Of a stretch of 64,000 nucleotides of DNA, positions 13,485-16,997 are shown one piece after another. The translations under genes and the position numbers were made by a program. The notes below the pieces were generated by a model, which saw nothing but the letters and a program-made list of their open reading frames with translations, was not told the origin of the DNA and searched no databases. Source of the stretch: Escherichia coli (GTDB taxonomy: Bacteria > Pseudomonadota > Gammaproteobacteria > Enterobacterales > Enterobacteriaceae); NCBI RefSeq assembly GCF_003334385.1, contig NZ_QOWN01000006.1; one strand, written 5' to 3'. Numbering within the stretch: the stretch's first letter is position 1; every line of letters starts with the position of its first letter.

Positions 13485-13615
13485 ACTACCCCCTGTTGAT
13501 TTGAACAGGGATTATGTCAGGATGAGGGCGCTTTCGCCAGTTGAAGTGGTGACGGCGACCTCACATTGTGGCAGTCTTTGCAGCACGAAAATGGAAGTAT
13601 AATGAGGACAAAATG

Positions 13616-13960
13616 ATGACTATCGTTCGTATCGATGCTGAAGCCCGCTGGTCTGATGTAGTAATCCACAACAACACGCTCTACTACACTGGTGTACCGG
13701 AAAACCTCGACGCCGATGCCTTTGAGCAAACCGCCAACACGCTGGCACAGATTGACGCCGTGCTGGAAAAACAGGGCAGCAATAAATCGAGCATTCTGGA
13801 TGCCACCATTTTCCTGGCCGATAAAAACGACTTCGCGGCGATGAATAAAGCGTGGGATGCCTGGGTTGTCGCGGGTCATGCGCCGGTGCGCTGCACGGTA
13901 CAAGCGGGTTTGATGAACCCGAAGTATAAAGTTGAAATTAAGATTGTGGCTGCGGTGTAA
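13616..13960 (+). CDS. yoaB: RidA/YjgF-family protein
   Basis: Track ORF 13568-13960; known 114-aa protein starts MTIVRID. Confidence 0.8.
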   Translation: MTIVRIDAEARWSDVVIHNNTLYYTGVPENLDADAFEQTANTLAQIDAVLEKQGSNKSSILDATIFLADKNDFAAMNKAWDAWVVAGHAPVRCTVQAGLMNPKYKVEIKIVAAV

Positions 13961-14381
13961 GCTTTATCGAAGCAAAATAAGTCAGACGATAATTTATCGA
14001 TAATACTGGTCGGTTTTACATAAATCGACCAGAGAATAAGATATTACTGTTGATGCTTCTGCTAATTCATTATTTATATTTATAATTTCAATTTTATCTA
14101 TAAAACTAACTATATAAATAAACATAAACATGCCGTTGTGTTCGCCCTTTGATTAGCAACTCTGGTTTTCTTTCTTAGCTGAACAATCTGGTTATAGCGT
14201 GCGGACTGACCGTTAAATTTCTCCATCTTACTGGATAACACACCATGAGCTGCTACCTTTAAAACACCTGAATGTCAACAGGTTAACTCGTGCCATATCG
14301 TTATAATCCCTTTGATATTAGATGCAAATTAAGGTCATATATAGCCTTATCGATAACATGGTTAATTTTAAGGATAAGAAT

Positions 14382-14681
14382 ATGCCTGCTGTAATAGATA
14401 AAGCCCTGGATTTCATTGGTGCCATGGATGTATCAGCGCCAACACCAAGTTCGATGAATGAAAGCACGGCGAAGGGAATCTTTAAATATTTAAAAGAACT
14501 GGGAGTACCCGCGAGTGCCGCTGATATTACGGCGCGAGCTGACCAGGAAGGCTGGAACCCTGGGTTCACGGAAAAAATGGTTGGATGGGCAAAAAAAATG
14601 GAGACAGGTGAACGTTCTGTGATTAAAAATCCTGAATACTTTTCAACATATATGCAGGAAGAACTAAAAGCACTGGTCTGA
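14382..14681 (+). CDS. yoaC: DUF1889 protein YoaC
   Basis: Track ORF 14322-14681; internal ATG at 14382 (MPAVIDK) gives the 99-aa product. Confidence 0.75.
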   Translation: MPAVIDKALDFIGAMDVSAPTPSSMNESTAKGIFKYLKELGVPASAADITARADQEGWNPGFTEKMVGWAKKMETGERSVIKNPEYFSTYMQEELKALV

Positions 14682-14709
14682 GTTAAATTTATATCAGCAT
14701 AAATGGGTC

Positions 14710-14747
14710 AGGACGCTTTTAATCACATATAAAAAGCGTCCTTTTTC
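14710..14747 (+). terminator. rho-independent terminator after yoaC
   Basis: AGGACGCTTTT...AAAAGCGTCCT hairpin followed by T5. Confidence 0.7.
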
Positions 14748-14800
14748 TCACAATCAAATGATCATCGGCTTCTATAACGAAATCGATACGGATTAGTGTG

Positions 14801-14980
14801 TTACTCGTCTTCATCCTCAAAACGCGCCACGATTCGCTCGCCGGAGTGGTTGGCACGCAGCTCTTCTGCCACCAGCGCGATTGCCTGGCCGCTGCTCATC
14901 CCTTGTGCCATCAGTTCCTGGATCCGCTCGACAGCTTTTTGCTGCTGTTCATGGGTGAGTGAAGGTAAACCTGCAAACAT
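14801..14980 (-). CDS. yoaH: UPF0181 small protein YoaH (59 aa)
   Basis: Not in ORF track (<60 aa); minus-strand [30 protein letters not shown]...EDEDE with AGGAG SD upstream. Confidence 0.75.
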
Positions 14981-15053
14981 TGTTAACTCCTGCTAAATTG
15001 TTGGCGCTAATTATTTCATGCTACCCGGCACATAGCCAGTAGAGTCAGGACTG

Positions 15054-16415
15054 ATGAAGACGTTATCTCCCGCTGTGATTACTTTACCCTGGCGTCAGGA
15101 CGCCGCTGAATTTTATTTCTCCCGCTTAAGCCACCTGCCGTGGGCGATGCTTTTACACTCCGGCTATGCCGATCATCCGTATAGCCGCTTTGATATTGTG
15201 GTCGCCGAGCCGATTTGCACTTTAACCACTTTCGGTAAAGAAACCGTTGTTAGTGAAAGCGAAAAACGCACAACGACCACTGATGACCCGCTACAGGTGC
15301 TCCAGCAGGTGCTGGATCGCGCAGACATTCGCCCAACGCATAACGAAGATTTGCCATTTCAGGGCGGCGCACTGGGGTTGTTTGGCTACGATCTGGGCCG
15401 CCGTTTTGAGTCACTGCCAGAAATTGCGGAACAAGATATCGTTCTGCCGGATATGGCAGTGGGTATCTACGATTGGGCGCTCATTGTCGACCACCAGCGT
15501 CATACAGTTTCTTTGCTGAGTCATAATGATGTCAATGCCCGTCGGGCCTGGCTGGAAAGCCAGCAATTCTCGCCGCAGGAAGATTTCACGCTCACTTCCG
15601 ACTGGCAATCCAATATGACCCGCGAGCAGTACGGCGAAAAATTTCGCCAGGTACAGGAATATCTGCACAGCGGTGATTGCTATCAGGTGAATCTCGCCCA
15701 ACGTTTTCATGCGACCTATTCTGGCGATGAATGGCAGGCATTCCTTCAGCTTAATCAGGCCAACCGCGCGCCATTTAGCGCTTTTTTACGTCTTGAACAG
15801 GGTGCAATTTTAAGCCTTTCGCCAGAGCGGTTTATTCTTTGTGATAATAGTGAAATCCAGACCCGCCCGATTAAAGGCACGCTACCACGCCTGCCCGATC
15901 CTCAGGAAGATAGCAAACAAGCAGTAAAACTGGCGAACTCAGCGAAAGATCGTGCCGAAAATCTGATGATTGTCGATTTAATGCGTAATGATATCGGTCG
16001 TGTTGCCGTAGCAGGTTCGGTAAAAGTACCAGAGCTGTTCGTGGTGGAACCCTTCCCTGCCGTGCATCATCTGGTCAGCACCATAACGGCGCAACTACCA
16101 GAACAGTTACACGCCAGCGATCTGCTGCGCGCAGCTTTTCCTGGTGGCTCAATAACCGGGGCTCCGAAAGTACGGGCTATGGAAATTATCGACGAACTGG
16201 AACCGCAGCGACGCAATGCCTGGTGCGGCAGCATTGGCTATTTGAGCTTTTGCGGCAACATGGATACCAGTATTACTATCCGCACGCTGACTGCCATTAA
16301 CGGACAAATTTTCTGCTCTGCGGGCGGTGGAATTGTCGCCGATAGCCAGGAAGAAGCGGAATATCAGGAAACTTTTGATAAAGTTAATCGTATCCTGAAG
16401 CAACTGGAGAAGTAA
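15054..16415 (+). CDS. pabB: aminodeoxychorismate synthase component I
   Basis: Track ORF 453 aa, chorismate-binding family. Confidence 0.9.
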   Translation: MKTLSPAVITLPWRQDAAEFYFSRLSHLPWAMLLHSGYADHPYSRFDIVVAEPICTLTTFGKETVVSESEKRTTTTDDPLQVLQQVLDRADIRPTHNEDLPFQGGALGLFGYDLGRRFESLPEIAEQDIVLPDMAVGIYDWALIVDHQRHTVSLLSHNDVNARRAWLESQQFSPQEDFTLTSDWQSNMTREQYGEKFRQVQEYLHSGDCYQVNLAQRFHATYSGDEWQAFLQLNQANRAPFSAFLRLEQGAILSLSPERFILCDNSEIQTRPIKGTLPRLPDPQEDSKQAVKLANSAKDRAENLMIVDLMRNDIGRVAVAGSVKVPELFVVEPFPAVHHLVSTITAQLPEQLHASDLLRAAFPGGSITGAPKVRAMEIIDELEPQRRNAWCGSIGYLSFCGNMDTSITIRTLTAINGQIFCSAGGGIVADSQEEAEYQETFDKVNRILKQLEK

Positions 16416-16418
16416 GAC

Positions 16419-16997
16419 GTGGAATACCGTAGCCTGACGCTTGATGATTTTTTATCGCGCTTTCAACTTTTGCGCCCGCAAATTAACCGGGAAACCCTAA
16501 ATCATCGTCAGGCTGCTGTGTTAATCCCCATCGTCCGTCGACCGCAACCGGGGTTGTTGCTGACTCAGCGTTCGATTCATCTGCGTAAACACGCTGGACA
16601 AGTGGCATTCCCTGGAGGTGCAGTCGATGACACGGACGCATCAGCTATCGCCGCCGCGCTGCGCGAAGCTGAAGAAGAGGTCGCTATACCGCCTTCCGCC
16701 GTTGAAGTTATCGGCGTGCTGCCGCCCGTCGATAGCGTCACTGGCTACCAGGTAACCCCAGTGGTCGGCATTATCCCGCCCGATCTGCCGTATCGCGCCA
16801 GTGAAGATGAAGTCTCGGCGGTGTTTGAAATGCCGCTCGCCCAGGCATTACATCTGGGTCGTTATCACCCTTTAGATATCTACCGCCGTGGTGATTCACA
16901 TCGGGTATGGCTGTCCTGGTACGAACAGTATTTTGTATGGGGAATGACCGCAGGCATAATTCGTGAGCTGGCGCTGCAAATTGGTGTGAAACCCTGA
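16419..16997 (+). CDS. nudL: Nudix CoA pyrophosphatase
   Basis: Track ORF 192 aa; Nudix box region GGAVDDTD...EAEEE. Confidence 0.85.

Follow-up and report, generated by a model that had tools for sequence, protein, structure and literature searches.

The minus strand at positions 14801-14980 of the window (the whole 64,000-nt stretch of Escherichia coli DNA that was analysed) almost certainly carries the protein-coding gene yoaH, which is translated from its own AGGAG/ATG signals to give a cytoplasmic, 59-residue member of the YoaH/UPF0181 family, while the plus-strand open reading frame (ORF) lying opposite to it is, with the same near certainty, no gene. yoaH is an already known, standard annotated gene of E. 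coli, and the family to which it belongs is without demonstrated function. Below, we lay out the evidence for the gene and its strand, and then what its relatives suggest about how the protein might act.

A 59-residue minus-strand product matches YoaH

The coding sequence spans 180 bases, from an ATG at 14980-14978 to a TAA at 14803-14801, and its translation is exactly the peptide of 59 amino acids (aa) that had been quoted in the original prediction. Family profiles placed this product in YoaH of UPF0181, as had been proposed there: the NCBIfam equivalog model NF003476 matched with 114.2 bits (E = 1.5e-33; curated cut-off, 72 bits) and covered the protein end to end (residues 1-59 against profile positions 1-60 of 60), and Pfam PF03701 (UPF0181) matched residues 1-49 against model positions 1-49 of 50 with 100.7 bits (E = 3.2e-29). 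The RefSeq yoaH coding sequence (WP_000457334.1, "YoaH family protein") mapped base for base onto 14801-14980 of the minus strand, in an annotation that was transferred from E. coli strain ER1709, whose sequence in this region is identical to the window. The window gene is the same as the yoaH of E. coli K-12, with coordinates and protein identical to RefSeq and no difference found. The surrounding region (14300-15500) showed 100% identity to many complete E. coli genomes and was present in 5425/5426.

The gene had been described as missed by the ORF track. This holds for the ORF list, from which yoaH is absent because the default cut-off is 60 aa and the gene, at 59 aa, falls one residue short; it does not hold for the genome annotation, which did have yoaH. 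The sole ORF of at least 60 aa listed over 14700-15050 is a plus-strand frame of 66 aa with a GTG start, at 14796-14996. ORF length by itself is no evidence for either, because the window contains 238 ORFs of at least 59 aa as compared to a mean of 193 in shuffled sequence; it is homology, codon statistics, and cross-species conservation that lift the yoaH ORF above chance. The site thus has value as a control, where a fixed 60-aa threshold loses a genuine, strongly conserved gene and lists a chance antisense ORF in its stead.

Codon usage and conservation follow the minus strand

The competing reading, that the plus-strand ORF at 14796-14996 is a real gene or that both strands are coding, starts from the fact that no other ORF of at least 60 aa is listed at the site. 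Scoring of both strands for codon usage and ribosome-binding sites, the check that accompanied the original prediction, clearly separated the two: a codon log-odds score trained on the long ORFs of the window itself yielded +16.0 bits for the yoaH frame, which is preceded by AGGAG, and negative values for all five other frames, with -13.0 bits for the plus-strand ORF, ahead of whose GTG no purine-rich Shine-Dalgarno (SD) sequence was seen. For its 66-aa product, the family profile search found no family match. Comparison with related species pointed in the same direction, as E. coli and Salmonella yoaH differ at 4/3/24 sites at codon positions 1/2/3 (21 synonymous and 6 non-synonymous codon changes) and E. 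coli and Klebsiella at 1/3/25, while stop codons break the frame homologous to the plus-strand ORF in Salmonella, Klebsiella, and Proteus.

A one-genome-per-species scan yielded relatives in 264 genomes, of which the best 80 loci were fetched, all of them from Enterobacteriaceae; the conservation statistics were computed over 76 of these, with four Buttiauxella loci left out where the start-finding pattern did not parse. Among these 76 loci (from the best 80 of 264), the yoaH ORF was intact in 76/76, at a length of 59-70 aa, and the frame displayed purifying selection together with a retained start, stop, and SD: the differences from E. coli yoaH summed to 302/204/1666 at codon positions 1/2/3, with 77% of the substitutions at position 3, and the median dN/dS was 0.052. 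The frame homologous to the plus-strand ORF, in contrast, was broken in 72/76 of the same loci (best 80 of 264) and stop-free in 4/76, these being the Escherichia-type loci, in which it is still open. The substitution pattern tracks the codon phase of the minus strand and not that of the plus-strand ORF. Because it has no family match, no SD, a negative codon score, and an open frame in 4/76 loci only, the plus-strand 66-aa ORF is a chance antisense frame of the kind that is commonly left open opposite a real gene, and the probability that it is coding, alone or along with yoaH, is close to nil. Its description as spurious was therefore well placed, and the observations that could have spoken against the original prediction came out the other way, with family matches for the minus-strand product and conservation in favor of its strand. 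Strand cases of this type are cleanly resolved by homology combined with codon-phase conservation.

Start signals and flanking elements

The strong AGGAG SD claimed for the gene was found at 14987-14991 on the minus strand, with a 6-nt spacer to the ATG, and AGGAG was kept within the -18 to -5 interval in 76/76 Enterobacteriaceae loci (best 80 of 264). Directly abutting the ATG is an ACA triplet (14981-14983, minus strand), which fits the published data on where MazF cleaves yoaH mRNA: the transcript was polysome-associated in Poly-seq, and the ACA that MazF cuts stands at a distance of 3 nt to the start codon (PMC5001579, Table 1). An alignment of 71 distinct upstream sequences displayed two conserved blocks upstream of yoaH, namely, the SD region and TGAAATAAT at 15010-15018 (minus strand), the latter being the most conserved of all. 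This block is a candidate extended -10 element (TGn + AATAAT), and a weak candidate -35, TGGCTA, lies at 15033-15038 (minus strand) with a 17-nt spacer in between; together they read as a putative extended -10/-35 promoter of yoaH. A consensus scanner, run at its own thresholds, called no sigma-70 promoter in 14600-15200, and its sole terminator call in that interval (15090-15105) was disregarded, as it lies inside pabB.

That gene, the divergent neighbor of yoaH, occupies 15054-16415 of the plus strand according to the RefSeq mapping. The two start codons are only 73 nt apart (14981-15053), and the yoaH and pabB promoters must hence overlap or sit within each other's genes. Any deletion of yoaH accordingly risks changing pabB expression, which bears on a published fitness phenotype in Salmonella that we discuss further below.

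On the other side, the 119-nt spacer between the convergent genes yoaC and yoaH yielded folding z-scores of -3.2 and -2.9 on the two strands. It contains an 11-bp hairpin at 14710-14742 that folds on both strands and has an 11-nt loop, beyond the limits of the terminator scanner. Because it is followed by a T-run on the plus side, this hairpin is the yoaC terminator, and it probably also marks the 3' end of yoaH. No known RNA element was matched in Rfam over 13500-16000 at E ≤ 1. Elsewhere in the window, Rfam matches at gathering threshold comprised sroD (8266-8351, minus strand), a cspA-type 5' UTR thermoregulator (27394-27854, minus strand), and the overlapping antisense pair SraC/RyeA and SdsR/RyeB (43343-43487, both strands), all of which are expected for this E. 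coli region.

Genomic neighborhood in Enterobacteriaceae

From the ER1709 RefSeq mapping, the plus-strand genes around yoaH are yoaB (13616-13960), yoaC (14382-14681), and, past pabB, nudL (16419-16997). The window gene stands in the orthologous enterobacterial position, divergent from pabB(-nudL): pabB was divergent in 75/76 Enterobacteriaceae loci (best 80 of 264), where the spacer measured 61-99 nt with a median of 81 nt, and Proteus has the same divergent arrangement.

The downstream side is more variable. yoaC and the ~420-nt AT-rich spacer that precedes it (13961-14800 in all) were present in 4/76 loci (best 80 of 264), and since these were Escherichia loci only, yoaC has the look of an insertion specific to Escherichia. 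In most other genera, Salmonella and Klebsiella among them, yoaB and yoaH face each other directly as convergent neighbors, and some E. coli strains carry an IS1 within the pre-yoaC spacer. The start of yoaC itself differs between the mechanical ORF (ATG at 14322, 119 aa) and RefSeq (14382, 99 aa, MPAVIDK...). In Proteus mirabilis (L004, 3200-3676), yebF lies on the same strand 17 nt past the yoaH stop, while E. coli yebF is located elsewhere. A common downstream partner gene was rejected, as the Proteus yebF and the PM0630 family gene of Pasteurellaceae-type loci are unrelated. A PADLOC search returned no defense system. A link to phages was likewise rejected, as a match to phrog_29644 and one "phage" record (an unannotated 2.4-kb Salmonella fragment) look like host DNA. 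The "plasmid" matches were mostly chromosomes, or chromids filed as plasmids.

YoaH is a predicted acidic hairpin

An AlphaFold2 model built from the small family alignment placed YoaH in two helices, residues 10-25 and 30-46, with pLDDT values of 92-95 in the core blocks and values from below 50 to 66 in the tail (residues 47-59). The protein has a pI of 4.7 and a net charge of -6, and 31/38 diverse relatives are net negative as well. Across the alignment of these 38 members, A33 and I34 do not vary at all, and Q13, A16, E18, I20, G27, V37, A38, and R42 are conserved in at least 90%; the window YoaH carries all of these core residues in a single domain, within the family size of about 50-65 aa. 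We found no hydrophobic segment in E. coli YoaH, and hence no signal peptide or membrane segment. Taken together, the prediction for YoaH is a soluble, acidic hairpin of two alpha-helices that ends in an acidic tail, flexible or disordered.

Neither sequence nor fold searches linked YoaH significantly to a characterised protein. Single-sequence and profile searches of the PDB with YoaH yielded nothing beyond designed repeat proteins and HTH fragments of no significance, the best matches being 2jml (a MerR-like CarA domain; E = 0.064) and the Mu transposase 2ezk (E = 0.58). A Foldseek search of the YoaH model against the PDB gave nothing below E = 1.8, and a search against AFDB50 returned almost only other UPF0181 proteins. 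The likeness to HTH/MerR domains is a local one, in a helix-Gly-helix such as EAVxRIxxLxxxGxSxxEAIAxV, and YoaH differs from these domains in being acidic and in lacking a third helix.

These resemblances raise the reading that YoaH is a small HTH-like DNA-binding regulator of the divergent pabB and thus of folate/PABA synthesis. Such a role would suit the pairing of the two genes across a spacer of ~80 nt, which recurs in 75/76 Enterobacteriaceae (best 80 of 264) and in Proteus, and alongside the two PDB matches there are sub-threshold Pfam resemblances to RsmI_C (0.053) and HTH_63 (0.063). Yet, none of the HTH matches is significant, with all E values above 0.05; the model contains two helices and no recognition helix where three helices are expected; the charge of YoaH and of most of its relatives is negative; and the linkage to pabB is absent in Vibrionaceae and in Pasteurellaceae-type loci.

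Published phenotypes also bear on this reading. For enterobacterial yoaH, the literature yielded only screen-level mentions and no function-defining experiment: an ASKA overexpression list on oxidant resistance includes the gene (PMC8228696), its expression is among those that differ most when a ydgH deletion is compared with the wild type (PMC12356324), and a Salmonella yoaH mutant was outcompeted on muskmelon and not in LB (PMC12767474). The last phenotype is one that a PABA-related defect might show, but it is equally explicable as a polar effect on pabB, and it could indeed be polar because the pabB promoter must overlap the 5' region of yoaH. Overall, we consider it very unlikely that YoaH acts as an HTH-like regulator of pabB.

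VxrE of Vibrio is a family member

The YoaH family is small, with 94 representatives at 50% identity among 1.84 billion proteins, and its named members are found in Enterobacterales, Pasteurellaceae, and Vibrionaceae. The context outside Enterobacteriaceae comes from a handful of loci, as the best 80 of 264 were all Enterobacteriaceae. On Pasteurellaceae-type contigs, the yoaH homologue comes after yqcC (DUF446) and truC, which encodes a pseudouridine synthase. In Vibrionaceae, it is the fifth gene in the order DUF3404 histidine kinase, OmpR-type regulator, DUF2861 protein, TraF_2 outer-membrane protein, and UPF0181 protein, which we observed in V. cholerae, Salinivibrio, V. campbellii, and one further genome (L008). 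The order was verified directly for the V. cholerae protein P0234, which bears the NCBI name "YoaH family protein" and carries PF03701. In V. cholerae, vxrABCDE correspond to VCA0565-0569, and vxrE (VCA0569) is co-transcribed with vxrD (PMC4441509). Judged from sequence and gene order, VxrE is a YoaH homologue, because the order around the V. cholerae YoaH-family gene corresponds to vxrABCDE.

VxrE and YoaH share family, size, and the hairpin core, but differ in their surroundings and at their ends: E. coli yoaH is an orphan without vxrABCD, divergent from pabB, and the conserved acidic tail of E. coli YoaH is missing from the Vibrio proteins. The window gene is not in a VxrE-type operon position, its neighbors being yoaC and pabB. 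DUF2861 and YoaH matches co-locate in Vibrionaceae records, and a tblastn search for DUF2861 found it in Vibrionaceae only, with no match on the E. coli, Salmonella, Klebsiella, and Proteus chromosomes of the same collection. E. coli YoaH is thus homologous to VxrE but stands outside any Vxr system.

In three divergent proteins, with 45-57% mutual identity, the two domains are fused as DUF2861::UPF0181 (VxrC-VxrE). The fusion ORFs (L005, 1012-2118; L006, 3054-4151; L014, 6001-7116) each follow directly after the regulator gene, with no vxrD, and a DUF3404 kinase gene precedes the regulator in L006 and L014, the two cases in which the contig extends far enough. The fusion N-terminus carries a signal peptide, and the junction keeps the internal Met-Phe start of the stand-alone protein with an SD-like purine run ahead of it, from which a separate hairpin may still be made. 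An AlphaFold2 model of one fusion placed the hairpin behind a low-confidence linker, and Foldseek on the fusion gave only generic Ig/FnIII-like sandwich matches (TM about 0.2) and revealed no docking surface. Two 465-aa "members" from a V. metschnikovii cluster (P0226 and P0228) proved to be unrelated proteins and not fusions.

A further variant is a tandem array. P0139 (347 aa) and P0206 (227 aa) are built of 6 and 3 tandem copies, respectively, of a unit of 45 residues (LTPEQRQQV..ELREQGKTPQEIRAAIAEMLKGWG), which hhalign matched to the YoaH hairpin with a probability of 95.4% (E = 1.8e-8); the tandem-unit protein loci are L095 5001-5684 and L096 2428-3111. A signal peptide is present in P0206, whose gene stands two genes upstream of one for an alpha-2-macroglobulin-like protein; the context is metagenomic and non-enterobacterial.

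Several features of the vxrE loci were recorded besides. In V. campbellii (L002, 3975-4000), a 9-bp GC-rich hairpin followed by UUUUUU ends directly before the vxrE ATG; it is terminator-like, and with a GAGGAG SD in its 3' arm, it would also sequester the ribosome-binding site. Salinivibrio likewise has a terminator-like hairpin between vxrD and vxrE. The gene directly downstream of vxrE in Salinivibrio (L003, 4245-4799) and in another Vibrionaceae genome (L008, 6339-6854) encodes a small protein with a stand-alone HD domain, which weakly matches the hydrolase region of RelA/SpoT. In V. cholerae, both assemblies (L097 and L098) break 34-36 nt past the vxrE stop, and VCA0569 comes up mostly in papers on genome rearrangement and the CTX prophage, a hint that just downstream of vxrE there is a repeat or an integration site.

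Possible modes of action

The VxrAB (WigKR) two-component system, which senses cell-envelope damage, is the only consistent genomic association of YoaH. The most likely mode of action, to which we would give slightly less than an even chance, is that YoaH binds another protein, docking on its partner stoichiometrically as a small modulator or adaptor. A protein-binding mode is favored because an acidic hairpin of such small size and so few features is implausible as an enzyme or transporter and lacks the third helix and the positive charge for DNA binding. A signalling or envelope-stress role in E. coli is more doubtful. In published assays, vxrC, vxrD, and vxrE contribute little, and the effects of vxrE are only minor: its deletion gave a competitive index of 0.70 in infant mice (PMC4441509). 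Furthermore, taxa that lack VxrABCD conserve the family to the same degree.

The context of yoaH also varies by order, from pabB in Enterobacterales to yqcC-truC in Pasteurellaceae-type loci. VxrC and VxrA are not the conserved YoaH partner, because a DUF2861 gene is lacking from E. coli, Salmonella, Klebsiella, and Proteus. A periplasmic location is predicted for VxrC, which seems to act as an inhibitor of VxrA (PMC10237652), and the VxrC-VxrE fusion is topologically awkward because the stand-alone YoaH has no signal peptide to follow VxrC there. The retained internal start with its SD-like run also makes the fusions weaker evidence of a physical partnership.

A more specific form of protein binding would have YoaH/VxrE act as a hairpin that binds the DHp four-helix bundle of a histidine kinase, with VxrA as its target in Vibrio and another kinase in E. 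coli. The model for such action is Sda of B. subtilis, a 46-aa helical-hairpin inhibitor of the sporulation kinase KinA. Like Sda, YoaH is predicted to form a small antiparallel two-helix hairpin, and it is of about the same size; its relatives are genetically associated with a histidine kinase, through the operon with kinase and regulator in Vibrionaceae and through the fusions in kinase/regulator operons. However, nothing in the PDB and Foldseek searches connected YoaH to Sda or another kinase inhibitor, by sequence or by fold, so the likeness would be an analogy of action and not a family assignment. In published assays, vxrCDE were moreover dispensable for the output of VxrAB, both for VadR induction (PMC7695739) and for T6SS activation (PMC10268840), and the family persists in taxa without VxrA. 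A Sda-like kinase-binding role is, on this balance, unlikely.

The tandem-array proteins open another reading, in which the hairpin belongs in the envelope, as a periplasmic module with kinship to the CpxP/Spy "LTXXQ" stress proteins. Helix 1 of YoaH opens with an LTHEQQQ motif, the signal-peptide-bearing P0139 and P0206 are built from a YoaH-like unit, P0206 has a faint match to Metal_resist of the CpxP clan (0.012), and the family is fused to the periplasmic VxrC. E. coli YoaH itself, however, has no signal peptide or hydrophobic segment, no LTXXQ or Metal_resist match in Pfam at E ≤ 10, and no match to CpxP, Spy, or ZraP in the PDB, where P0206 is without a relative too. A CpxP/LTXXQ kinship of YoaH itself is thus unsupported, and we regard this reading as highly improbable.

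Returning to protein binding as the preferred mode, a broader proposal may be made in which the 45-residue hairpin is a portable module of envelope-stress signalling, which would occur as VxrE in the VxrAB operon, joined in some lineages to the periplasmic VxrC, and in secreted tandem arrays elsewhere. YoaH would then be its orphan enterobacterial copy, tuning some kinase or stress pathway of E. coli by direct binding, which in this specific form we hold to be rather doubtful. The equivalence of YoaH and VxrE and the VxrC-VxrE fusions offer a concrete, if unproven, lead to the function of yoaH, a modest lead rather than a discovery. If the proposal is true, it would provide the first function for VxrE and for one of the last conserved uncharacterised proteins of E. 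coli.
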